NCBI GenBank assembly: GCA_963705675.1
Contig: CAVPKR010000155.1
Span: 1,089 to 65,088, forward strand
Reading direction: 5' to 3'
Length of the DNA: 64,000 bases
DNA from: Terriglobia bacterium
GTDB taxonomy: Bacteria > Acidobacteriota > Terriglobia > Bryobacterales > Bryobacteraceae
Of the stretch, positions 19,774-55,400 are shown piece after piece (positions within the stretch are counted from its first letter, which is position 1; each line of letters begins with the position of its first letter). The position numbers and the translations under genes were made by a program. The notes below the pieces were generated by a model. The model worked only from the letters and a program-made list of their open reading frames with translations, searched no databases and was not told where the DNA came from.

Positions 19774-20745
19774 TTGACCCTCGCCGCTACATTTGTGGGT
19801 GGATTTGTTTTAGCGCTGCTGATCGCCGCGCTTTGGATTCGCTCGCGGCCGGAGCCGCCTCCATTTGCCGATGCGCTGGCCCGGATCGAATCCCAGATGC
19901 GCGAGTTCGAGTCCCAACGCCAGCATATGCTCGGCGGCCTGGAGCATCAGTTATCGTCGCTTAGCCGCGAAACCGTGTCGCTTTCGCAGGCGCTTCGAGC
20001 CCCCAACTCGCGCGGCCGATGGGGCGAGCTGACTTTGCGCCGCGTCGCAGAGCTGGCCGGAATGGTCCCGTATTGCGATTTTTACGAGCAGGAATCCAGT
20101 GACCGTACGCGTCCCGACATGCTGGTTCGTCTGCCGGGTGGGCGGACTCTTGCGGTCGACGCCAAAGTGCCGTTGTCGGCCTATCTGGATGCGGAAGCCG
20201 CGCCCGATGAGGCGTCCCGTCGCGCCGCGCTCGAACGCCACTCGCAGCAGGTGATGCGGCACGTCACACAGTTGAGCGGCCGTGAATACTGGATGCAGTT
20301 CCAGCCGACTCCCGAGATGGTGGTGTTGTTTCTGGCGGGGGATCATTTCCTGAGCGCGGCGCTCGAACGCGACCCCGAAATCCTGGAGCGCGCTCTGGCT
20401 AAAAAGGTCCTGCTGGCGACTCCGGTTACCCTGGTCAGCGTGCTAAAAGGCGTGTCCTACGGCTGGCGGCAGGAGAAACTGGCCCAGAATGCGACTGAGC
20501 TGCGCCGGATTTCGGGCGAGTTCTACGATCGAATCCGCGCTTTCGCCGACTCCTACACAGATGCCGGAAGGCATCTCGCGAAGGCGGTAGATGCCTACAA
20601 TCGCTCGGCCGGATCGTGGGAAGCGCGGCTGCTGCCTTCGTTGAAGCGAATGCGCGAGTTGGGTGCATCGGCGGCCGAGGAAGCTCCGGTACCTCCGCGC
20701 GTCGACGTTCCGGTTCGCGATCCCCAGTCTCTGGGTCCCGTATGA
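19774..20745 (+). CDS. rmuC: DNA recombination protein RmuC (short form)
   Basis: N-terminal TM helix and coiled coil, then RGRWGELTLRRVAELAGMVPYCDFYEQES...LPGGRTLAVDAKVPLSAY...EYWMQF...PEMVVLFLAGD. Confidence 0.8.
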   Translation: MTLAATFVGGFVLALLIAALWIRSRPEPPPFADALARIESQMREFESQRQHMLGGLEHQLSSLSRETVSLSQALRAPNSRGRWGELTLRRVAELAGMVPYCDFYEQESSDRTRPDMLVRLPGGRTLAVDAKVPLSAYLDAEAAPDEASRRAALERHSQQVMRHVTQLSGREYWMQFQPTPEMVVLFLAGDHFLSAALERDPEILERALAKKVLLATPVTLVSVLKGVSYGWRQEKLAQNATELRRISGEFYDRIRAFADSYTDAGRHLAKAVDAYNRSAGSWEARLLPSLKRMRELGASAAEEAPVPPRVDVPVRDPQSLGPV

Positions 20746-21650
20746 TGCGCCATTTTTTCCTCTACCTTGCAGGCCAGAAACGCTTGCGGAGGTTCATGGA
20801 AACCTCGCCCGCATCTCAGAAATTCACTCGCCGGTTTGTCGCGGGTGAGACTCTCGAGATGGCGCTGGCGGTGCTGGAAGATCTGCAAAAGCAGCGAATC
20901 TGGGCCACCCTCGATCATCTAGGGGAAAACGTAAGTTCGCTTGAGGAGGCGTCAGCTTCTCGCGATTCTTATCTTGAAGCATTGGATAATATTGCGAGTC
21001 GTAAACTACCGGCAACAGTGTCACTTAAGTTGACGCAGTTTGGGCTGGACTTTTCTCAAGAGGCGTGCCTTGAAAACGTCCGAAAGTTGGCTGCCGCCGC
21101 TAAAGCGAACGGGAGCAGGGTAGAGATCGACATGGAATCGACCGCTTATACGGATCGCACGCTCGATGTCGCCACCCGGATTCACCAGGAGTTCAATTGC
21201 ACGCGGGCGGTGATTCAGTCATATCTTCGGCGTAGCGCCGGTGACATTGACCGCCTGAATAAGCTGGGCCTTCCCGTTCGCCTGTGCAAAGGAGCCTACG
21301 ACGAGCCCGTCACCGTCGCATTTCAACAGAAACGCGAGGTGGACCGGAACTACGTGGTGCTGATGAAGACGCTGCTCGACAAGGGCGCGTATCCAGCCAT
21401 TGCGACGCACGACGAAACCATGGTGGGTGAGGCGTTTCGATACGTTCGCGAGCGGAAGTACCCGCCAGAGCGGTTCGAGTTTCAGATGCTGTACGGCATT
21501 CGCCGGGACCTGCAAAAGCGCATCGTCGACCTGGGCTACAATCTTCGCCTATACGTGCCTTACGGGACCGCCTGGTACCCGTATTTCATGCGCCGTCTGG
21601 CCGAGCGGCCCGCCAATGTCATGTTCCTGGCCCGCAACCTGTTCCGCTAA
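20742..21650 (+). CDS. Proline dehydrogenase
   Basis: MMRHFFLYLAGQKRLRRFM...FVAGETLEMAL...ATLDHLGENV...VRLCKGAYDEP...AIATHDE...FQMLYGIR. ATG 20742 overlaps the rmuC stop. The 5' extension in ORF 20616-21650 is not coding. Confidence 0.8.
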   Translation: MMRHFFLYLAGQKRLRRFMETSPASQKFTRRFVAGETLEMALAVLEDLQKQRIWATLDHLGENVSSLEEASASRDSYLEALDNIASRKLPATVSLKLTQFGLDFSQEACLENVRKLAAAAKANGSRVEIDMESTAYTDRTLDVATRIHQEFNCTRAVIQSYLRRSAGDIDRLNKLGLPVRLCKGAYDEPVTVAFQQKREVDRNYVVLMKTLLDKGAYPAIATHDETMVGEAFRYVRERKYPPERFEFQMLYGIRRDLQKRIVDLGYNLRLYVPYGTAWYPYFMRRLAERPANVMFLARNLFR

Positions 21651-30661: not shown

Positions 30662-32380
30662 TCAAGCCTGCTTCAGCCCGGACCCGTATGGGAGCCGCAT
30701 CTGGAATTCTGCGCCGGGGCCGTTGCCGGTCACCCATAGATCACCGCCGTGATCGAGCAGCGTTTGCCGCGACAGCGCCAGGCCCAGTCCCAGGCCGTTT
30801 TTCTTGCCGAAGGTGACGAAGGGCTGGAATAAGCGGTCCCGAACTTCGGGGCGGATCCCCGGGCCGGTGTCTTTGACTACGATCACCAGAGCCGATTCTT
30901 CCTGCGTGGCATGGATGCGCACGGTGCCGCCGGTGTTCATCACCTCCACCGCGTTTTCGAAAAGATTGCGGAAGACGCGCTCCATGCGGGCTCGCTCCAT
31001 AGGACACTCGACGCCGGATGGCACCTCATCCACGAGTTTCACTTTTTTGGCTTCGGCATCAGGCTCGACGGCGGCCCATGCGGCGGAAACTACGTCGCCG
31101 ACGTAACACATTTCCGGCACGCCGGTTCGGCCTCGGGATACATTCAGGAGCTGCTGCAGCATCTCCTGAATGCCGCGCGAGGCTCGATAGATGTTGATCG
31201 CCAGGCGCTTGATTTGCGGCATGGGCAGGTTGCTGTCGAACAGCATTTCGGCGCCGGCGTAGATCGCGGCCAGCGGATTACGAAGATCGTGGACGATGCT
31301 GGTCGAGAGGCGGCCGATGGTGGAAATCCGCTCCTGCCGCGTCAATTCCTGGCGGGCCTGCTGGATCGATTCGCACATGGCGTTGAAGGTGGTGCCCAGG
31401 CGGCCCAGTTCGTCGCCGCTGTGCACGTCCACCCGATAGTCGTAGTTCTGACGGCCGATTTCGGAGGCGGCGCGATCCAGCTCGGCTACCGGACGCATGA
31501 TCCTGCGCGCGACAAAGAACGTTACCAGGAGTGCCGCGGCCATCGCCGATAGCCAGAGCGCGACGATTTCGGTGCGCAGCGCCGCGATACTGTGGCGGGC
31601 GGCTTCGAAGGATCGAAGAATCAGGAGCTGTCCGATGGGTTCGCCGCGAATATCCAGAAGCGGAGTGGCCAGGGCAAGATAATCCTCGTTGCGGGCAGTC
31701 TGTTTATCCAGAAGACGCGCGGTTAAGCCGGCCGGCAAGGTCGTGGTCACCACCTGCTTGCCGGTGACGAAGACGAAGTCGCTGCCGCCGGTTTCTTCCT
31801 TCAGCCGGCGCGCCACAGAGATGTCGACGCCATAACCGGCTACCAGAACGTCCAGCAATCCCGCGCCGCTGCCGGCTTGCACGTAGACGGGTGTTACCAC
31901 CACCTGAAAGAGGTCGCCGCCGCGCTGGACGAAGCCCGGGACTTGGTCGGGAAAATGCGACTCGGCGGCTTGCACTTCGGGAAAATCGGCGTTTGCGCGA
32001 ATCGGGCCAGACCTGCCGAGTGAGGCGATCACCTTCCCCTGCGGATCGGCCACCAGGAAGAAGGCGTCTTCGGTGGAGACTTTCGACCATAGCTCGCCCG
32101 CCGTGTCGCGAATGGTGGCTTCATCCCGGGTGCCGAAGGCGGCGCGGACTGAGGGCATAGTGCTGAGAATGCGGCTAACGCTGGCGAGACGGTCGGCGCG
32201 CGCGTTCCAAAGCGACTCGTAGGCTTGGAAGCTCGCGCGAGCCTCATGCTCGACGCTCTCCGTCGTGGTCTTGACGACGCTGCTCTGCACAATCCACCCG
32301 GCGGCCGCGAACACCAAGGTCAAAACGCCGGAGGTGGGCAGCAGAATCTTCCATAGCAGCGACAGACGAGAGAAACTCAC
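30662..32380 (-). CDS. Sensor histidine kinase (periplasmic sensor domain + HAMP + HisKA + HATPase_c)
   Basis: The H-box is STSIVHDLRNPLAAI. N, G1 and G2 boxes are FENAVEVM, VKDTGPGI, GLGLGLALS. The GTG start overlaps the upstream stop as GTGA. Confidence 0.9.
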   Translation of the reverse strand: MSFSRLSLLWKILLPTSGVLTLVFAAAGWIVQSSVVKTTTESVEHEARASFQAYESLWNARADRLASVSRILSTMPSVRAAFGTRDEATIRDTAGELWSKVSTEDAFFLVADPQGKVIASLGRSGPIRANADFPEVQAAESHFPDQVPGFVQRGGDLFQVVVTPVYVQAGSGAGLLDVLVAGYGVDISVARRLKEETGGSDFVFVTGKQVVTTTLPAGLTARLLDKQTARNEDYLALATPLLDIRGEPIGQLLILRSFEAARHSIAALRTEIVALWLSAMAAALLVTFFVARRIMRPVAELDRAASEIGRQNYDYRVDVHSGDELGRLGTTFNAMCESIQQARQELTRQERISTIGRLSTSIVHDLRNPLAAIYAGAEMLFDSNLPMPQIKRLAINIYRASRGIQEMLQQLLNVSRGRTGVPEMCYVGDVVSAAWAAVEPDAEAKKVKLVDEVPSGVECPMERARMERVFRNLFENAVEVMNTGGTVRIHATQEESALVIVVKDTGPGIRPEVRDRLFQPFVTFGKKNGLGLGLALSRQTLLDHGGDLWVTGNGPGAEFQMRLPYGSGLKQA

Positions 32381-33097
32381 GGCTTGACTCCAGAATAAGG
32401 TCCCGAGTCGGACGCCGGATAGTCCTTTCCGTACTTGTTCTTGTGGGGCAGCAACAGGTAGCCGCTCTCGGACACGTCGATTTTTGGGAGATCGGTGATG
32501 CCCTGCCCCACGTCAACGGTTCCGATGAGACTATCCAGGGTCTGCTGGGTGGAGCGTTCGTGAAAAACGCGAAGACGGTAGGCGCCGGGGGGGACGTTGT
32601 GGATCGAAAATTCGCCGGCCTTTCGTGGAAACGGCAAAATACGGAGACTTCAGCACGACGATCACGGCGCTCATCGCCGGATGGATGTTGCAAAATACGC
32701 GGACGATTCCTTCCCGCTTAAATTCAATCGAGCGGGAGGTGCCGGGAGGGTACAAGCCTACGTCGAAAATCTCGCCGTCGTAATTCGAGAACGCATTGTG
32801 AAAAATGGGATCGTAATTGGGAAAATTGATCACGGTCCCGACGTCAATCGCCAGCAGGTGAGGCAGAAATCGCTTCCCCTTCTGAATCATCTCGGCTTTA
32901 CCAGTGCGGCTGGCGAGGGGCGGGCCGCCTGGCATCGAATCGAGCCAGACCACGACTCCCGAGTAATCGGCATTCTTGCGCACGGCCTGCTCTTTCGACG
33001 AGACGATCTCGATGTGTCCCGTGACAGTTCCCCCTGATGCAATCGCAGCGCAACAGAGCCAGATCGCGGGCAAGCGAGTACGCCAATCCCGCCGCAC
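32377..33097 (-). CDS. Secreted cupredoxin-like / methylamine-utilisation-protein-like protein, frameshifted near 32625
   Basis: Signal peptide VRRDWRTRLPAIWLCCAAIASG. VFCNIHPAM is a Cys-x2-His-x2-Met copper-site-like motif. ORF 32531-33517 joins ORF 32377-32637 as ...SPYFAVSTK-AGEFSIHNVPPGAYRLRVFHE. The start is inferred at GTG 33097, because a signal peptide must be N-terminal. Confidence 0.6.
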
Positions 33098-33540
33098 TCC
33101 GTTTTGCGCGACTAAGTCAGAGGGAGCGCAAAGGATGCGGCGCGCACGACTGATCCAGCGAACACAACATTCGCGCCGCACTCCGTTTTGCGCGACTAGA
33201 TCAGAGGGAGCGCAAAGGATGCGGCGCGCACGACTGATCCAGCGAACACAACATTCGCGCCGCACTCCGTTTTGCGCGACTAGATCAGAGGGAGCGCAAA
33301 GGATGCGGCGCGCACGACTGATCCAGCGAACACAAGATTCGCGCCGCACTCCGTTTTGCGCGACTAGATCAGAGGGAGCGCAAAGGATGCGGCGCGCACG
33401 ACTGATCCAGCGAACACAACATTCGCGCCGCACTCCGTTTTGCGCGACTAGATCAGAGGGAGCGCAAAGGATGCGGCGCGCACGACTGATCCAGCGAACA
33501 CAACATTCGCGCCGCACTCCGTTTTGCGCGACTAGATCAG
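33091..33540. repeat. Tandem array: 5 complete 84-bp units plus a 30-bp partial unit
   Basis: Units start at 33091, 33175, 33259, 33343, 33427 and 33511. The consensus is GCCGCACTCCGTTTTGCGCGACTAGATCAGAGGGAGCGCAAAGGATGCGGCGCGCACGACTGATCCAGCGAACACAACATTCGC. Only 3 positions differ across all copies. Confidence 0.95.
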
Positions 33541-34882
33541 AAAAGATACGCCACCGCCAGATCGATGTGGTTATTCAACCGGTTGCCGATTCCAAGATAC
33601 GTCGTCCGGACCTGGCTGGCCTCCAGGCTCAGCATCACATTGGGCGCGATGCGGTACATCGCGTTCGCGGCGAAAGCTTCATTCAAGCCGATGTAGCCGG
33701 CGCGCAGGTTCGAATTCTGATCGTCCTGGCGGCCGCCGTAAATGTCGAACGCCAGGCGCTCGGTTACGGGAAAGCGCAGCTGCGCCCAGCCGCCGGTGCT
33801 GTGAACCGGCGTGGACCCGTCATAATGCGGAATAAAACCCTGAGGCAGAGCCCCAAGATTCGCGACATTTTGGCCGTTATAGAAGAAGCCCGTGAACTCG
33901 ACAAACTTTACCGGCCGGATCAGCCAGTCGAGCGAAAACAGATGGGAGGATACATTTGACGAGCCGACGGTGCTCGCGTTTTCGTGAAACCCGGGCGCGA
34001 TTTCGATGCGTGTATGCTCGCCCCACTGGCGCCAAAGCTCGAAGCGGCCTTCGACGCCCGGCTGCGCGTGTTCGACGGGAAGTCCGGTAAGAGGAGCCGG
34101 AACATAGGCGTTGTAACCCGTCGATTCGGCGCCGGGCTCGCGCGTCTGCACCACGCCCACCTGCGCGCGAAGGCCGGAATCCTTCGCGAAATGGATCCGC
34201 TGTTCGACGCGAATTTGCGGCTGCCAGAGCCACAGATTCCCCGCCCCAGTGAGCGGCGAGACGCCGACCTGCGCGAAGGAATTCGGATCGCGCGGGGAAA
34301 TAATCGGCTTATCCTGTCCGAATAGAACGCTGGTTTGATTCCAATCCAGCGAAATAGTCGCGGTCCTCAAGCGAATCAGATGATTCAGCGATCCGGCGGA
34401 CCCGCCGAATAGATCGAGAGACAGCGCACCGTCACTTTGCCCCCGAAGATCGACTGCGGGCTGTCGTAGACCAAGCCGAGGATGCTTTGGCGTAGCGATC
34501 CTCCGCCGGTCGCATCCGCGGGCGTGAGTGGCGCGATGGTCGTGTTCTCCGTGCCGCCGTTGTAGCGGCCGTTCGCATAAGCATTGAACAACGCCATTCC
34601 AGTCACCGTGATGGGCAGCTTCTGCGACGACGCGACTTTGGTTTGCTCCAGCTCCTCCACTCGCGCCTTCTGGACTTGAGCTTGCTCCTCTGCCGGCTCA
34701 GCCGCTGGTGCCGCCCCGGATCGCGCCACCGCCAGCTCCTGCCGCAGCGACTTAACTTCCTGATTCAGAGACCGGTTCGCGTCTTCCAGCTTCTGCAAAC
34801 GATCCAGAATTTCGCGGATCTCGGGAGTGGATTGCGCCTGCAGCGCGACTCCTCCGATGACGACCAGCAGTAGGCGTTTCAT
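33537..34882 (-). CDS. Outer-membrane beta-barrel porin with an N-terminal coiled coil, frameshifted near 34430
   Basis: Signal peptide plus coiled coil (ILDRLQKLEDANRSLNQEVKSLRQEL) in ORF 34385-34882. After a 1-nt shift the text reads GALSLDLFGGSAGSLNHLIRLRTATISLDW..., continuing into ORF 33537-34370. That ORF ends in an aromatic residue (VAYLF*), typical of OM barrels. Confidence 0.65.
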
Positions 34883-35259
34883 TTTTTCAGCAACTGCTCC
34901 AGTTTCTCCCGCACTTTCACGGGCGAATATGGCTTCATGAAAAAAGCGTTGGCGCCGAGCCGTTCGACACGCTGCGGCGCATCCGGATCGGCCGAGCCGG
35001 TGATCACCATGATGGGCACGTCGCGATGCACGCTGTGGCCGCGGACACGCTCAATCAGCTCGAACCCATCCATGCCCCGCATTTCGAGGTCGGTCACGAT
35101 CGCCGAAAGATCGCTTGCCGCGTTGTTCTCGATCAGCCCCCAAGCCGCTTCGCCGCTCGGAACGGTGAGGACACTCAGGTCCTCCAACCCGCTGAATACG
35201 ATCTCAAGCATGGAGGCGCACGTATCGGCATCCTCGACGATCAGCACGGTGCGTTGCAT
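34879..35259 (-). CDS. Single-domain response regulator (CheY-like receiver)
   Basis: MQRTVLIVEDADTCASMLE...AIVTDLEMRGMDGFELIERVR...PIMVITGS...FMKPY. The stop overlaps the porin ATG as ATGA. Confidence 0.85.
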   Translation of the reverse strand: MQRTVLIVEDADTCASMLEIVFSGLEDLSVLTVPSGEAAWGLIENNAASDLSAIVTDLEMRGMDGFELIERVRGHSVHRDVPIMVITGSADPDAPQRVERLGANAFFMKPYSPVKVREKLEQLLKK

Positions 35260-35324: not shown

Positions 35325-36011
35325 TTACGGCAGGAATCGATAGCCGACGCCGTGAACGGTCAGGAAGTGGCGGGGCGTGTTGGGGTCGGATTCCAGCTTC
35401 TGGCGGAGCTTGACCACGTGCGCGTCGACGGTCCGAGTGTTCGGAAACGACTCGTAGCCCCACACGGAATTGAGAATCATGTCGCGCGTCAGCGGCCGGT
35501 CGGGATTCGAAAGGAAATAAGTCAGCAGATTATATTCCGCGGGAGTCATTTTAAGAGGCTCGCCGTGGCGGCTCACCACGCGTCGCTCGAACTCGATCAG
35601 CACGTCTCCGAACTGCGCCACTTTGCGCGCATCGGGCGAGGTGCGGCGGAGCACGGCCCGGATTCTCGCCAATAGCTCGCGCGCCCCAAATGGTTTGACT
35701 ACATAATCGTCGGCGCCGATTTCAAGCAGCAGTACCTTGTCGACCTCTTCGCCAACCGCGCTCAACACGATGATCGGCGTGTTCACGTTACCGGCGCGAA
35801 GCTGCTTCGAGATCTCGATTCCACTCATGCCGGGCAGGCGCAAATCCACCAGGATCAGGTCGGGCTTGGCGCTGAGGGCGCGCTCATATCCGGTTTTGCC
35901 GTCAGAAGCGAGCAGGGGCCGATAGCCTTCCTGTTCCAGCATCAGGCCGATGGTATCGCGCAGACTTTCGTCATCGTCGATCACCAGGATGGTCGTCATC
36001 GTATGCCCCAT
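35325..36011 (-). CDS. OmpR/PhoB-family response regulator
   Basis: The receiver is ILVIDDDESLRD...LILVDLRLPGMSGIEI. The winged helix is TPAEYNLLTYFLSNPDRPLTRDMILNSVWGYE...RTVDAHVVKLRQKLE...LTVHGVGYRF. Confidence 0.9.
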   Translation of the reverse strand: MGHTMTTILVIDDDESLRDTIGLMLEQEGYRPLLASDGKTGYERALSAKPDLILVDLRLPGMSGIEISKQLRAGNVNTPIIVLSAVGEEVDKVLLLEIGADDYVVKPFGARELLARIRAVLRRTSPDARKVAQFGDVLIEFERRVVSRHGEPLKMTPAEYNLLTYFLSNPDRPLTRDMILNSVWGYESFPNTRTVDAHVVKLRQKLESDPNTPRHFLTVHGVGYRFLP

Positions 36012-36159: not shown

Positions 36160-37703
36160 TTAGCGGCTCGCCTGGACCGGATCCATCCGGCGCCAGAGCC
36201 GGTACCCGGACACAGTTACATCGGGATTCTGAACCGGCTGATAATTCTTCTCAAGCCAGGCTTCCAGTGTTTCGTACCGGAAATCGAGATTCGAACCATT
36301 CGGAAAAATGCGCAGGAATTCTTCCCGCGATAGCTTCAGATACAACAGCCATTCCGGCGGATCGGCCTCCAGACCTTCCAATGCGACACCTGCGTCGCGA
36401 GCCGTCGACATACCTGGATTGAGATACGCATATCGCGTCGGATTTTTCGCCTGCGTCAGGAAATAATCGATCGGCATGTAGGGATACACGAACAATCCCT
36501 CGCCCGGACGCACTTTCGCCAGCAGATTCTGCGTCGCGGCAAGCTGCCCTTTGTCGACGCGCAGTGTCCCGACCGGCGAAGCCACCCGCCTAGTACCGCT
36601 AAACGTTATGAAGAAATTCGACGCGAAGATGCCCGCCATGATCATCGTGGCGATCGTAAAGCGCGGGCCTCAACCGGTCCGGAATCATCTGCGCAAGCGC
36701 CGCCCCCGCGAGCACGTAAGAAAGCGCCGCGATGAAAGCCAGGTGCATCACGTCGGCGCGCGGAAACAGAGTCGCCACAAATGCGATCAGCGTCAGCAGG
36801 AGCAACTGAACGGTAGGGCGGATTTGCTCCGGGATCGTCCGCCGCCACATCGCGGCCGCCCATGCCAACAGCGCCACCGGCGGCAGGATCGCAGGCAAGG
36901 CCACGCAGGCGACCAGGATCGCCCGGATCGTCCATTCATACCCGCCGCTGGACCCTTCGAACAAGGCTCGATAGCCGCCGACGATGGTTCCGTAGGGCAT
37001 CGTATTGACGCCCGCATAATTCTGTCTCAACCACAGCAGTTGTTCGAGGAAAGCACGCAAGCAACCTTTCTCGATCAGCCATCCAAGGGCTAGCGCCGAT
37101 ACAGAGACGACGCCAGCGGCCCATGGAAGCAAAGCCTTGCGGCGTTCGCGGGAAACCGCTAGCCACAAGGCTTCCGCGGCTCCCACCATCGCCACTGTAG
37201 GCGTGCACCAAGTTGCTGCGGCAAGCAGAGCTCCGCTCGCTGCCCACTTTATTTTGGACGATGCTGACACCCCGATCGCGATTCCGGCTAAGGCGAGCGT
37301 AGCGCTGTCCCATCGATGCTGCGCCGTCAGAAACGCCGGGTCGGCGATCTGGAATCCGGCGAAGACGAACAGACACTACCGCCGCTGCACGAATTGATGC
37401 CAACCGCGCGGTCAGCCAAAAAACCAGCGCGCATTGGATTGAAAAATCCAGGATCACGATCAGGCGGCCAGTGATCAGCGAAATTCCGAAAACTCGGAAC
37501 ACCGCGGCTTGAAGCCAATAACTCCCTGGGCTCATGTAGGCCCAGAAATCGACATAGGGGCGGGCTCCTGCCGCGACCCGCTGCGCCGGCTCCAGCAGGA
37601 TTCCTTCATCGTTCGTCGCCACCACGCGATTTCCGTGGAACGCCAGCAGCAGAATCGCGACGCCCAGAAACACCGCGCCCGCGATGCGCGCCGTGCGGTT
37701 CAT
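36160..37703 (-). CDS. GT-C-fold membrane glycosyltransferase (ArnT/PMT-like, GT39/83-like), read across 2 frameshifts (~37383, ~36660)
   Basis: ORFs 36936-37703, 36599-37270 and 36160-36645 join into one polytopic protein of about 515 aa. An acidic first-loop motif follows TM1 (NDEGILLEPAQRVAAGARPYVDFW). ATG 37703 overlaps the GT2 stop as ATGA. Confidence 0.6.
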
Positions 37704-47836: not shown

Positions 47837-47885
47837 CCAGAATGATTGAAACCTGGCGTTGCTCATTTGCGTAGAGTTCTTTCAT

Positions 47886-50253
47886 ATGGACCTCAAGTTC
47901 GCCCTGCGATCGCTTCGAAAGAGTCCGGGGTTCACTGCGCTGGCCGTGCTGGTGATGGCGCTCGGGATGGGGGCGAACACCGCAGTTTTCAGCGTAGTTA
48001 ACGCGGTGCTGCTGCGGCCGCTGGGGTATCGCGATCCCGATCGGATCGTGGTGCTCACGTCGTCGTGGAAAAAAGGGGTGCTGGCTGGGGCGCTATCTAA
48101 ACAGGTTTCCGCACTGGACGCTCAGGATTGGCACGATCAAAGCAGCGCGTTCCAGTGGATGGCCTATTATGCGACCACGCAGGCTTCGGTGCTCGCCGGT
48201 GAGGCTGCTGCTTACGGGCGTGTGACCCAAGTTACGCCGGAGTTTTTTCGGGTTTTTGGAATCGAACCCGCCGCGGGGCGTATTTTCCCAAGCAGCGGGA
48301 CCGTGGTGATCAGCCACGCGTATTGGCGCAGCCAGTTTGAAGCCAATCCCAGCGCGATCGGACGCAGCGTGCGGATGTTCGAAAGGACCTTCACCGTGGC
48401 GGGCATTATGCCCGAGGGGTTTAACGATCCGGTGCATAGCGATCTCTGGCTGCCGATCGAAATGAAGGCTCAGAAGCCCGAATATCGCGCGGGGCTCAAT
48501 TACGAATGCATCGCGAGGCTCAAGCCGGGCGTGAGCGTGGAACAGGCACAGGCGCAGCTGACGTCCATCGCCACCCGGCTGACGCAGCGATATCCCAATA
48601 CGAACGAAGGCCGCGGCGTTTCTGTCACGCGATTGAGAGACGAGACGGTCAGCGAGGTTCGAACCACGCTGTATACTTTTGCTGGGAGCGGTGGGAGTGG
48701 TGCTGCTGATCGCGTGTGCGAACGTCGCGACGCTGCTGCTGGCCAAGGCGACGGGACGGGCGCGGGAAATGGCGATTCGCGCCGCGGTGGGGGCCACTCG
48801 CGGGCGGATTCTCCGGCAGTTGATCACAGAGAGCCTGGTGTTATCGGTCATGGCGGGCGGCGTGGGACTGGTAGTGGCGATATGGGGATCGAAGGCGCTG
48901 GTCGCCCTCGCGCCGGCCGGGGTGCCGAGGTTGGCCAGCACGTCCACCGACGGGTGGGTTCTGATGTTCAATTTCGCGATGGCGGTCGTCGCGAGCCTGC
49001 TGTTCGGCTTGGTTCCCGCAATTCACGCGTCTCGGACGGATTTGAATCAGATGCTGCGCCGTGGGGCGGGAAGTTTGAACTCGATGCGGTCCGCGCTGGT
49101 GATCGCGGAGATTGCGATGTCGGTGATCCTGCTGGCCGGTGCGGGATTGTTGATGAAGAGCTTCATCGCTCTGCGCGGTGTAACGCTCGGATTCCAGCCG
49201 GAAAACGTGCTAGTGATGAAGACGACAGTTCCGGCATCGAGCGATTCGGGCACTCGTCGCGCCAACCAGTTTTTCAAAGGACTGCTGGCTGACATGGCGA
49301 CATTGCCGGGCGTGGAGGCTGCGGGCGCGACCACCTCGCCTCCAGGGCATATCGAAACGTCGACGCTGTACTGGATCGATCGGATCCCTAAACAATTGGA
49401 CATGAGCGGGACGCCGGCGTTGGTATCGGTGGTCGCGCCGGGCACGTTCCATGCTCTGGGAATTCCCCTGAAGCAGGGACGCGATTTCAACGATTCCGAC
49501 GGTCCCGGGACGCCATTCACCGTCATCGTGAATGACGCGCTGGTGCGAAAATCGTTTGCTGGGCAGGATCCGATCGGCCGCACTATCTTTTGTCCTTCCG
49601 ATTCGCTCGACGGGATGAAGATTGCCGGCGTAGTGGGCGACGTTCGACAGGAGGGGCAGGCGTACGCGCCGCAGCCGGAATGCTACATGCCCTACCAGCA
49701 GCATCGCTACAACGGGACCACCCTTAGCGTAGTCGTCAAGACCGCGGGCGATCCGCGGGGGCTGATGGACTCCCTGCGCAAGATGGTGGCGAATCGCTCG
49801 CCCGAAGTGTCGGTGGATTTCACTACGATGGGAGCGCTGCTCGCCGGGAACGTCGCGCCGGATTGGTTCAGAACGCTGCTGCTGGGAATCTTCGCGGGCT
49901 TGGCCGTCTGCCTGGCGATGGCTGGGGTCTACGGGGTAATGGCGTATCTGGCGGCGCAGCGGACCAGCGAGATCGGTCTGCGGATGGCGCTGGGCGCGTC
50001 CCCAGGTAACGTGCTGCGGCTTATCTTGGGCCAGGGGATGACGCTCGCAATGATCGGTGTCGCGCTGGGTCTCGCGGGAGCTTTCTCGGTCTCGCGGCTG
50101 CTCACCAGCATGCTGTTCGAGGTGAAACCTGGAGATCCGGCGATCTATGCGTCGGTCGCGGCAATGGTGGCGGCAGTATCGTTCGTGGCCAGTTATCTGC
50201 CTGCGCGCGCGGCTGCAAGTGTAGACCCGCTGGTCGCGCTGCGCAATGAGTAG
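47886..50253 (+). CDS. ADOP-family MacB-like ABC transporter permease, frameshifted in a T run near 48678
   Basis: MDLKFALRSLRKSPGFTALAVLVMALGMGANTAVFSVVNAVLLRPLGY. ORFs 47859-49292 and 48679-50253 join as ...VRTTLYT-LLGAVGVVLLIACANVATLLLA. The C-terminus is VDPLVALRNE. Confidence 0.85.
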
Positions 50254-52494: not shown

Positions 52495-55400
52495 GGCTCC
52501 GCCGGCAACGGTACTTCGACTAGCACCGTCGTCCCATGTCCCGGTTTGGATTCAATCGACAGCTTGCCGCCCATCATCTTCGCCCGCTCCGTCATGCTGA
52601 CCATGCCCAGCCCGCCTCTACCTTTCACGGCCGCGGGATCGAAGCCCACGCCGTTGTCTTCGACAGACATCCTTAAACGGTGATCCGGAATGGCCAGATT
52701 CACGGTGACTTGCCCCGCCCTGGCGTATTTGGCCACATTTTGCAGGCTCTCCTGCGCGATCCGGTAAACGCCGGACGCGATGCTCAAAGGAACCGAATCC
52801 GGCAGCTTGCCGGCGGTGAACTTTACCGGAATATCCTCCGCCGCTGAAAAATCGCCACACAATGCTTTAAGGGAGATGGTCAGCCCCAGGTCGTCCACCA
52901 CGGACGGATGCAGTTCGTAGGCGATGTGCCGCGCCTTTTCCGAGGTTTCGATCACGCGCCCTTCGAGAGCCTTCAGACGCGTTCGCGTGGATGCGACCGT
53001 ATCGGGTTCGCTTGCCAACGCTTCTACATCCAGAGCCAACGAAGCCAGTTGCTGGCACAAGCTGTCATGCAATTCTCGCGAAACCCGGCGCCGTTCTTCT
53101 TCCTGCGCCGTCAGCAACTGTGCCGCCAGCGCGCCAATCTCGGTCCGGTAGATGTCCGATTGCTTCTCCAGACGACGCCGTTCGGTGACGTCCACAAAAA
53201 CGCGACTGCCAGCCGCCGCTCAGTACGCTCGATGGTACTGAAGGTAGCTTCAACCGGAAAAACGGCACCGTCACGACGGCGTGCTTCGAGGCCGATTCCT
53301 ATACCCGCCCGCTCTTACGAGCGCCTAAAAATCCTTGCAGAATTTCGGAGGTATGCTGCCGGGGGCTCTCCGGAAGCAAAAAGCGGAGAGGCTGGCCGAC
53401 GATCTGATCCCGGCGGTAACCGAACATCTTTTCCGCTCCGCTATTCACCAGCACGATCTTTTCGTCAACGCCGGCCGCGACAATGGCCTGTCCCGACGAC
53501 TCCAGCAGCGCGCTCGCATAATCGCGCGACTGGCGAGCTTCCTCGAGCAACGGACGTTTGATCAGGTCAATGTCCAGCAGGACCACGATCACGCCGTCGA
53601 TCTTATTATCGCCGGTACGGTACGGACGCAGACGCAGCAGGTACCAGTAACCGTTACGGTCTTTGACCTCGCGTTCGATCGGGCGAACCTGGTCAGTAAC
53701 CTCGCCGACCCATTTTTCCCAATCGGGCATCTGGAAAGTGGACGCGATGTCGCTGAAGGGCCGTCCCACGTCGGATTCGAGCAGATTCAGCAGTTTTCCC
53801 GCGACCGGAGTGAAGCGGCGGATGTGCAGGCTCCCGTCGAGAACCAGCACCGAAATCTGGACCCCCACCAGCAGGTTGTTCAGGTCGTTGGTCAGGACGC
53901 TCAGCTCGGAGTTGCGGTGGCGCAGCTCTTCATTGAGCGTGATCAGCTCCTCGTTCGAGCTCTGGAGCTCTTCCTTCGCGGTTTCCAGCTCCTCGTTCGT
54001 GCTCTGCAGTTCTTCGTTGCTCGACAGAGCCTCCTCGCTGGCCGCTTTCATCTCCTCCTGCGCGGCTTCATGCTCGGCGATCAAAGTGCGCATGTATTCG
54101 CGCGCGGAAACCAATTCCTTCTCCAGGCGGGAGGCCGGTAGTTCCTTTTGCGTACGCTTGCGCTCAGCCGGAGCGTGGGCATGCTCCGTTTCCTTGAAAA
54201 CGATCAGGAAATCCGGTTTCTGCGCGGCATTTTTGTGGAGCAGCGACACATCGATGCGAACGTTTCCAGGATGCCCCTTGTGCGGATACGGGATCACATC
54301 GGTCGACACCATGGTTCCTTGACGCTTCGCCTGCGAGATGGCGCTGCGAATTTCGACCACAAACTCCGGACGGATTATTTTAAACAGGTGATAGGCGGGC
54401 GGGCCCGTGGAAAGAGCCAGATAGGGACTGGTGTCGCCTTGAAAATGAACCACCCGCAGATCGGAATCCACCACCAGAGCAGGCGGCACGTAGCGGTGCA
54501 GCAGAATTCGTTCGGCTTCCTTCTGATGATCCATCAGTGGAGCGGCCAGAGCGATCTTGGGCTGCCCGGTCCGGTGCTCTTTCTGTTCGCCACTCAGCCA
54601 GTCGAAGCGGGATGCCAGCGGAGCACCCTCCTTGCGGGAGAAGATCTTGTGGGTATGGTCCTCAGGACGTAAAGATGTTCGCAAACGCGCTGATCGCCTC
54701 GGATTTTCCGAGCATAAGGGCACCGCCGGGCTTCAGCGCGTAATGGAAAATTCCTAAGACCCGCTTCTGTAGAGCCGTCCCCATGTAAATCAGGACATTC
54801 CGGCAACTGATCAGGTCAAGTTTCGAAAACGGAGGATCGTTGGCCAGGTCATGCCGCGCGAACACACACAGGTCGCGCACGGATTTGTTGATCTGGTAGC
54901 CATGGTCGGCTTTGACGAAAAAGCGCTTAAGGCGCGCGGCCGATACACCATGCACTGCGGCTTCCGAGTAGATTCCGACGCGCGCATGCTCGATCGCGCG
55001 CTCACTGATGTCGGTGCCGAACATCTGAATCCTCAGCCGGCTGGCGTGCGCGCCCAGATCCTCGAGCAGCAGCATCGCAATAGTGTAAACTTCCTCGCCC
55101 GTCGAACAGCCGGGGACCCAGATGCGGATCGCGTCCTCAGGCGGCCGTTTACCACGAAGCTTCGGAAAGACCTGTTTTCGGAGCGCCTGAAAGCACTCGG
55201 CGTCGCGGAAGAATCCGGTGACGTGGATGAAGATATCGGCCGCCGCAGCCTCCGCCTCACTACGGTCCTGCTTCAGGAACTGCGCATATTTGTTGAGCGA
55301 GTCGATTCTCTGCAAAGCCATCCGGCGCGCCAGACGGCGGCGGACCGTATGCTGCTTGTACCAATGGAAGTCCAAGCCAGTGGCGGAGCGGAGCAGTTGA

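Follow-up and report, generated by a model that had tools for sequence, protein, structure and literature searches.

The minus strand of a 64,000-nucleotide stretch of a Terriglobia bacterium genome (assembly GCA_963705675.1, contig CAVPKR010000155.1), hereafter called the window, carries a two-component operon with a tandem repeat array between its porin-like and cupredoxin-like genes, and this array is the subject of our analysis. The operon order is OmpR-type regulator, CheY-like receiver, porin-like gene, array, cupredoxin-like gene and histidine kinase, and the gene order in close relatives is the same. Domain searches identified the OmpR-type response regulator at positions 35325–36011 (Response_reg and Trans_reg_C domains) and, downstream in the same operon, the sensor histidine kinase at 30662–32380 (dCache_3, HAMP, HisKA and HATPase_c), both on the minus strand. 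The CheY-like single-domain response regulator, which has 125 amino acids in relatives, occupies approximately 34879–35256 of the same strand, and the open reading frame (ORF) listed for it runs to 35463.

The gene upstream of the array encodes a porin-like outer-membrane protein (33537–34882, minus strand), which has 452 amino acids in relatives. It is split by an apparent frameshift near 34425 and is represented by the ORFs 34385–34882 and 33537–34370. No Pfam or NCBIfam family was detected in this protein, for which the searches returned only an N-terminal coiled coil, and "porin" is a putative label. Downstream of the array, a secreted cupredoxin-like and CarboxypepD_reg-like protein is encoded at 32377–33097 (minus strand, ORFs 32531–33097 and 32377–32637), with an apparent 1-nt frameshift near 32620–32637. 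It showed weak CarboxypepD_reg matches and a match to the blue-copper domain 5fc9 (E = 5e-5). Its closest relatives were 77%–80% identical, with proteins P0001 and P0003 at 80%. The named matches of this search, as well as the metagenome-assembled genomes (MAGs) bearing the repeat, belonged to Bryobacteraceae or Bryobacterales of the phylum Acidobacteriota.

Tandem Repeats Finder delimited the array at 33090–33541 (period 84, 5.4 copies, 98% matches, 0 indels, score 883), by far the strongest repeat of the 64-kb window. The array lies on the minus strand, in the same direction as the operon, and was also recovered by the nhmmer profile of the repeat family described below. It consists of five full 84-nt units and one truncated unit arranged head-to-tail, with unit starts at 33091, 33175, 33259, 33343, 33427 and 33511. 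The units differ at exactly three bases, of which unit 1 accounts for two and unit 3 for one. The near-perfect 5.4 × 84-bp array, its unit starts and the three variant bases, all reported in an initial annotation made from the sequence, were thus reproduced. Five occurrences of the unit's 55-nt core lie in the array and none lies elsewhere in the 64 kb; shuffled sequences gave an expectation of 0. Another repeat, an imperfect 21/42-bp tandem of 2.3–3.6 copies with 70%–77% matches, was found in the window at 53922–54019, within the minus-strand ORF 53299–54723.

Each unit of the array comprises a 69-nt core, counted from the sequence as the distance from the start of a left arm (L) to the end of a right arm (R), and a linker; since the linker is 15 nt long, the period is 84 nt. 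The left arm of the first unit, CGCGCAAAACGGAGTGCGGCGCG, is located at 33508–33530 (minus strand; pattern search, 0 mismatches) and begins 9 nt downstream of the T of the porin stop. Additional left arms with 0 mismatches lie on the same strand at 33424–33446, 33340–33362, 33256–33278 and 33172–33194, and the terminal truncated unit has one with a single mismatch at 33088–33110, so that the left-arm pattern CGCGCAAAANGGAGNNCGGCGCG has five exact matches and one 1-mismatch match in the window, on the minus strand. The right arm of the last full unit, GCGCGCCGCATCCTTTGCGC, was located at 33126–33145 (minus strand) by pattern search and folding, and the pattern search placed the others at 33210–33229, 33294–33313, 33378–33397 and 33462–33481, also on the minus strand. 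All five differ by one mismatch from the right arm of the family, CGCGCCGCACCCTTTGCGC.

The end units of the array contain coding signals. The porin-like ORF ends with ...AVAYLF and a TGA at 33537–33539, within the first partial unit, where the initial annotation had placed it. In every window unit a TGA occurs at position −9 from the left arm, and the TGA of the first unit is the porin stop. At the opposite end, the left arm of the truncated unit contains the GTG at 33095–33097, and family similarity stops at approximately 33078–33083. The proposal that the downstream gene starts within this unit gained support, since the GTG opens a plausible signal peptide, MRRDWRTRLPAIWLCCAAIASGG; the last truncated unit now appears to supply the start codon of the cupredoxin-like gene. 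Along the whole array one minus-strand frame remains open, producing a 328-aa ORF at 32531–33517, an artefact of the array, as the initial annotation had concluded.

The unit belongs to a dispersed repeat family. The 23-nt left arm was used as a search pattern (CGCGCAAAANGGAGNNCGGCGCG) against one genome per species and matched at least 119 stretches; the family figures given here rest on the matches listed from that scan. The left arm was present at at least 119 places, in approximately 35 MAGs or assemblies among the matches listed. Nearly all of these matches were in Bryobacterales or Bryobacteraceae MAGs, and the two or three matches in unrelated taxa look like chance. A single MAG contained up to 24 loci, and others had 13, 11 and 9. 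The dozens of dispersed copies that the initial annotation had regarded as the mark of an ordinary repeat family therefore exist, as seen in related genomes.

The family unit consists of the linker TTCTRAGGAACT, the 23-nt left arm CGCGCAAAACGGAGYGCGGCGCG, a variable loop of approximately 27 nt, usually starting with AAGCAGTTCCTGG, and the 19-nt right arm CGCGCCGCACCCTTTGCGC. The distance from the start of L to the end of R was 69 nt, as in the window, in 86 of the 130 listed copies with a recognizable right arm. Most listed copies were solo elements of approximately 81 nt, and arrays of 2–6 units were frequent (2, 3, 4 and 6 units were seen), with periods of 77–83 nt, mostly 80–81 nt (e.g., L013, L021, L040 and L062). 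A profile hidden Markov model built from copies at unrelated loci only, with the window copy left out, matched the window units with 57–58 bits (E of approximately 3–5e-17). The nhmmer search with this profile gave five matches on the minus strand of the window and scores of only 7–10 bits on the plus strand, and it revealed no other copy in the 64 kb.

A T-R-A triplet is conserved in the linker 9 nt before the left arm: among 127 copies it was TGA in 46, TAA in 33 and TAG in 2. The linker motif can thus be written YTRA, with TAA almost as frequent as TGA. The linker TGA or TAA serves as the stop codon of the upstream same-strand ORF in 22 of 124 elements. For 36% of elements, an ORF with at least 100 codons ended on the same strand no more than 40 nt upstream, versus 10% for random positions. 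According to a crude ORF heuristic, co-directional contexts included 25 sense and 12 antisense elements, and convergent and divergent contexts were found as well.

Several other features of the family were observed. Many copies have the 3′ flank CTTCCTGCCGGTCGCGGTTCGG in common (L033, L039, L076 and L098 in one MAG; L035, L091 and L108 in another), and therefore the element appears, from this sequence similarity, to belong to a larger composite repeat in some genomes. In L048, L060 and L071 the left and right arms are joined almost without a loop; these internally deleted copies indicate that the family decays by deletion between the arms. A paralogue of a winged-helix (CadC/OmpR-like) and beta-propeller regulator adjoins the repeat in 16 of approximately 115 listed loci (e.g., L101:782-3133), probably because this paralogue family is abundant.

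Comparison of orthologous junctions between the porin-like and cupredoxin-like genes showed that the family is present there only in the closest relatives, namely, L001–L004 and L125, with a decayed remnant in L005, where only the left arm is left; in all of these loci the left arm is preceded at 9 nt by the porin stop. In approximately 55 more distant orthologous loci the two genes abut without a spacer. The comparison included 80 loci (L125–L204) with 54%–78% protein identity, of which approximately 70 were informative, and among these 80 the family was found only in L125 (78% identity). In most of the informative loci only 43–79 nt separate the porin stop from the mature N-terminus of the downstream protein; therefore, the genes abut or overlap, and there is no spacer. 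The downstream start in several orthologues is an ATG within the last porin codons, e.g., in P0021 (MISPWHISF...). Where the repeat is present, the motif TCGCGCAAAA(C/G)GGAGNNCGGCGCG follows the porin stop in the window, L001, L005 and L125, with the stop located exactly 9 nt before it.

The spacer in L002, L003 and L004 is 112 nt long and contains one unit of approximately 92 nt. In L001 it is 204 nt long and contains two units, and the downstream protein is identical to that of L002–L004. Since L001 matches L002–L004 with 100% identity in the 5.9 kb upstream of the repeat, copy number varies between near-identical strains, which supports the variability suggested in the initial annotation. 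A second case is provided by two MAGs with flanks in common, which carry two units at L012:5029-5201 and three at L021:2825-3100. The initial annotation had proposed looking for a single-unit version of the spacer in orthologues; it does occur in L002–L004, whereas most orthologous junctions lack the spacer altogether.

At least 13 other orthologous junctions, from various acidobacterial lineages, contained inserts of five other, unrelated repeat kinds (e.g., L132, L136, L137 and L143; L158 and L179; L142, L159 and L197; L161, L176 and L192; L147 and L151), so that at least six unrelated kinds of repeat occur at this junction. The insert of L142, L159 and L197, CCGAGCCGTGACCGCGAGGAAGCGGTC, matches a repetitive extragenic palindromic (REP)-like hairpin located by class-3 TnpA(Y1) genes of Solibacter usitatus (PMC6006769). 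The junction may be an insertion hot spot, or it may have captured repeats convergently. The cupredoxin-like orthologues P0001, P0002, P0020 and P0045 have long odd N-termini that are translated inserted repeats (e.g., MNTNKHEYPKIAADARRC... in P0045). Such N-termini arise systematically in annotation as an artefact of the inserts.

The inverted repeat noted in each unit is real. Single units of the array fold at −33 to −35 kcal/mol (z of approximately −2 to −3), and for the RNA of the whole spacer the folding energy is −232 kcal/mol (z = −3.9). An exact-seed inverted-repeat finder returned nothing for the array because bulges interrupt the stems, and folding and pair counting were used instead. 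Pair counts over 114 family copies showed that the 19-bp L:R helix has 96.7% of its cells paired. A second helix, formed by the linker (AGGAACU) with the loop (AGUUCCU), had 73% of cells paired in the same copies, with some two-sided changes. The window right arm has a T that preserves a G:U pair on the mRNA strand only, and a C.A mismatch, pairable only on the opposite strand, is found in many copies of the family. The RNAalifold consensus recovered part of the L:R helix with almost no covariation; since the search pattern fixed the left arm and the copies are young and very similar, covariation is unable to prove an RNA function here.

Signs of mobility were sought in the captured loci. Inspection of solo copies by eye (L011, L015, L022, L063 and L064) showed no target-site duplication, since the flanking T-R-A triplets, as well as the heptamers, differ within these copies. 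No left arm with a distant right arm around a transposase, as expected for a parent insertion sequence, was present in the captured loci, and the search for a parent element gave only internally deleted or truncated copies. The search for recurrent neighbours, covering up to 8 kb of each captured locus, revealed no transposase, and the sole recurrent cluster was the CadC/OmpR-like regulator paralogue. Scanning approximately 0.9 Mb of the 119 captured loci for HUH/Y1 motifs gave nothing, and no RAYT gene was found in these loci. The occurrence of a conserved short motif at both ends, the subterminal hairpins and the absence of duplications would be reminiscent of single-strand HUH-enzyme elements; this resemblance, suggested in part by PMC6006769, is a lead.

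Taken together, these data make it very probable that the array stems from a dispersed, palindrome-bearing family of intergenic Bryobacterales repeats, one copy of which was amplified locally. Because orthologous junctions without the element have essentially no spacer, we interpret it as an insertion into a tight junction. Amplification of the native intergenic region, the origin favoured in the initial annotation, is contradicted by the membership of the unit in a family found at at least 119 sites and by the empty orthologous junctions. One copy of the element would have entered the porin-cupredoxin junction in an ancestor of the clade, with the porin stop codon coming to occupy the conserved T-R-A position of the element. 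Replication slippage or unequal recombination among the units could then have increased their number at this site, as suggested by the 98%–100% identity of the units and the different copy numbers in close relatives. The insert would separate formerly close-coupled cistrons by approximately 450 nt of stably folding RNA, in which five or more hairpins might protect the porin mRNA against 3′ exonucleases and, by impeding read-through or coupled translation, lower or uncouple the expression of the cupredoxin and kinase genes in proportion to copy number. An RNA array that uncouples porin from the downstream genes would be a reasonable consequence of the insertion, as expected by comparison with REPs, bacterial interspersed mosaic elements (BIMEs) and mycobacterial interspersed repetitive units (MIRUs) inside operons.

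Some observations weigh against this interpretation. No mobilizing gene, autonomous partner or target-site duplication was found in the captured loci, and for this reason the argument for mobility comes entirely from the distribution of copies. Dispersal was seen in related genomes, while this genome has one locus in its 64-kb window; as 64 kb of it were examined, dispersal is documented for the relatives and not for this genome itself. The orientation bias of the elements is only moderate (25 sense to 12 antisense), and an RNA-level function is therefore not general across the family. The scan of the array for promoters and terminators found no canonical promoter or terminator. In addition, both genes flanking the array look frameshifted, which may reflect decay of the operon or an error-prone assembly.

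The latter point also underlies the explanation that the true locus has one or a different number of units and was expanded by the assembler. Besides the frameshifts near 34425 and 32620–32637, adjacent same-strand ORFs in different frames were found at 36160–37703, which is a single 514-aa protein in relatives, and at 47859–50253 and 19774–21650. Because several window genes appear frameshifted, the source, a metagenomic contig of 65,299 bp, probably stems from an error-prone long-read assembly; alternatively, these genes may be multiple genuine pseudogenes. Neighbouring parts of the window, and not the array, are covered by Logan contigs of run ERR10755948. Nevertheless, units 1 and 3 carry private variants, as real diverged copies would, family arrays of 3–6 units occur in independent MFD MAGs (L013, L021, L040 and L062), and two-unit arrays are present in k127-named and SPRUCE assemblies. 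An expansion by the assembler is therefore less likely, and we consider it improbable. Two other explanations would assign a local function to the sequence of the unit itself. The phased regulator-binding array put forward in the initial annotation, i.e., an operator array for the OmpR-type regulator of the operon, would agree with the location in a two-component operon and with the 84-bp period of approximately eight helical turns; it is extremely unlikely because more than 100 unrelated loci in many genomes contain this sequence. Moreover, most orthologous operons have no spacer and lack the repeat, which is located between two cistrons and not at a promoter, no promoter-like site having been found by the scan. 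Translation of the repeat (repeat peptide VRRECCVRWISRARRILCAPSDLVAQNG), whether it extends the cupredoxin-like protein at the N-terminus or yields small peptides, is hardly credible. Although 84 nt equals 28 codons, one frame is open, and this is the frame in which orthologues start inside the porin 3′ end (P0021), the ancestral ATG is gone (CAC ATC GAT replaces CAC TAT GAT), and the signal peptide would lie buried behind an extension of 150 amino acids. The one-unit and two-unit spacers of the sister lineage L001–L004 differ by 92 nt, which is not a multiple of 3, and the downstream protein is nevertheless identical. Two of three frames are open in the 81-nt family consensus, which is attributed to base composition.

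Another possibility is that the array has been exapted as a regulatory or contingency locus, in which the array and the other junction inserts are selected as a tunable intercistronic attenuator and copy number sets the expression of the cupredoxin and kinase genes relative to porin. The repeated insertion of unrelated hairpin repeats at this junction (at least 13 of approximately 70 loci), the different copy numbers in near-identical strains, the strong folding of the spacer RNA and the T in the window right arm, which keeps a G:U pair on the mRNA strand only, all point in this direction. On the other hand, these genomes are repeat-rich, and the hot spot may be nothing special; the family occurs in all intergenic contexts and in both orientations, and many of its copies have the C.A mismatch that pairs only on the opposite strand. 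Such selection is possible but unlikely. We are more doubtful about a broader proposal, in which the family would be a Bryobacterales analogue of MIRU and REP with arms recognized by a putative single-strand DNA enzyme, and the arrays, together with the other junction repeats, would be selected as copy-number-tunable intercistronic attenuators setting the ratio of outer-membrane protein to sensor kinase. Local amplification of a dispersed repeat, the explanation we favour, accounts for the array as a member of a family and reveals no new kind of system; the finding is real, ordinary in kind and of modest interest.

The array matters in practice for annotation, because it makes a false 328-aa ORF and hides the true start of the downstream gene, while related inserts have misled gene callers in relatives, as in the long N-termini of P0001, P0002 and P0045. 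The family also provides a high-copy repeat with a usable consensus and profile for an abundant but poorly studied soil order. Copy-number differences resembling those of variable number tandem repeats (VNTRs) could serve as strain markers, as MIRU-VNTR do in mycobacteria. Finally, one junction repeatedly struck by unrelated hairpin repeats is a convenient natural test system for the effects of such elements on expression within an operon.

The statement of the initial annotation that the array corresponds to no described repeat family was upheld within the searches made here. Rfam gave no match to the window at the gathering score, and only chance-level matches at E up to 10. The unit is absent from the Solibacter REP table (PMC6006769), where text searches for GCGCAAA and TTTGCGC returned unrelated rows only, and the family seems not to have been previously described. 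Candidates of other kinds were also considered. A type III toxin-antitoxin (ToxI-like) array was rejected, the downstream gene being cupredoxin/CarboxypepD_reg-like and most orthologues lacking the repeat. CRISPR was rejected as well. An integron attC site was discarded on inspection, since the linker misfits the RYYYAAC core site and no gene cassettes are present between the units.

Within the same order, the REP-like hairpins associated with class-3 TnpA(Y1) of Solibacter usitatus, present in approximately 600 copies (PMC6006769), are likewise a dispersed hairpin repeat, and their CnGA foot resembles the CTGA in the linker of the Bryobacterales family. However, the Solibacter hairpin, CCGAGCCGCGACNGTCARGGAGCGGT, is much shorter (25–28 nt), and although the linker of the window unit does contain CTGA, YTRA of the Bryobacterales family is not strictly CnGA. 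The Solibacter sequences CCGAGCCGCGACTGTCAAGGAGCGGTTG and AGCCGCGACCGTCAGGGAGCGGTCG in Table S1 of the same paper (PMC6006769) are unrelated to the window unit.

A parallel in arrangement is offered by MIRU. These elements were first found in the senX3-regX3 operon and have been proposed to stabilize upstream mRNA and modulate downstream translation (PMC7884335, PMC4473831); by definition they lack dyad symmetry and contain small ORFs co-oriented with their neighbours (PMC4473831). Like MIRU and MIRU-VNTR, the Bryobacterales repeats are dispersed intergenic sequences of tens of base pairs, often located in operons, that form head-to-tail arrays with strain-variable copy number. In the window, as in MIRU, the end units touch the flanking stop and candidate start codons, and the site is intercistronic in a two-component operon. 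In contrast to MIRU, the Bryobacterales family is built on the 19-bp L:R hairpin, i.e., dyad symmetry is present, shows no sign of a conserved ORF and occurs in both orientations. It also belongs to a different phylum, and no sequence resemblance was seen. As for a MIRU-type overlap with ORFs, the upstream stop and the candidate downstream start do lie in the terminal units; however, no conserved ORF was visible, and the orientation is only 25:12 sense to antisense.

The family can also be compared with MITEs (miniature inverted-repeat transposable elements) such as Correia, ERIC and RUP, which are short, non-coding and dispersed, have terminal inverted repeats comparable to the L and R arms, and are often located at gene ends. 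MITEs can provide stop and start signals and change operon expression. Unlike MITEs, the Bryobacterales elements had no target-site duplication in the solo copies inspected, and their frequent head-to-tail arrays are not typical of MITEs. No parent insertion sequence was seen among the captured loci. REPs, BIMEs and the REPtrons associated with RAYT/TnpA-REP resemble the family in being high-copy extragenic imperfect palindromes that often follow stop codons directly, occur in operons and form clusters. REPs are 20–40 nt long and have a 5′ GT[AG]G foot, and BIME arrays alternate in orientation; in the malE-malF spacer, REPs act as mRNA 3′-end stabilizers. The Bryobacterales unit differs in its length of approximately 81 nt, a consensus without a GTAG foot and strictly direct arrays. 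The repeat is thus a new family of a well-known kind, namely, palindromic repeats dispersed over intergenic regions and forming variable tandem arrays.

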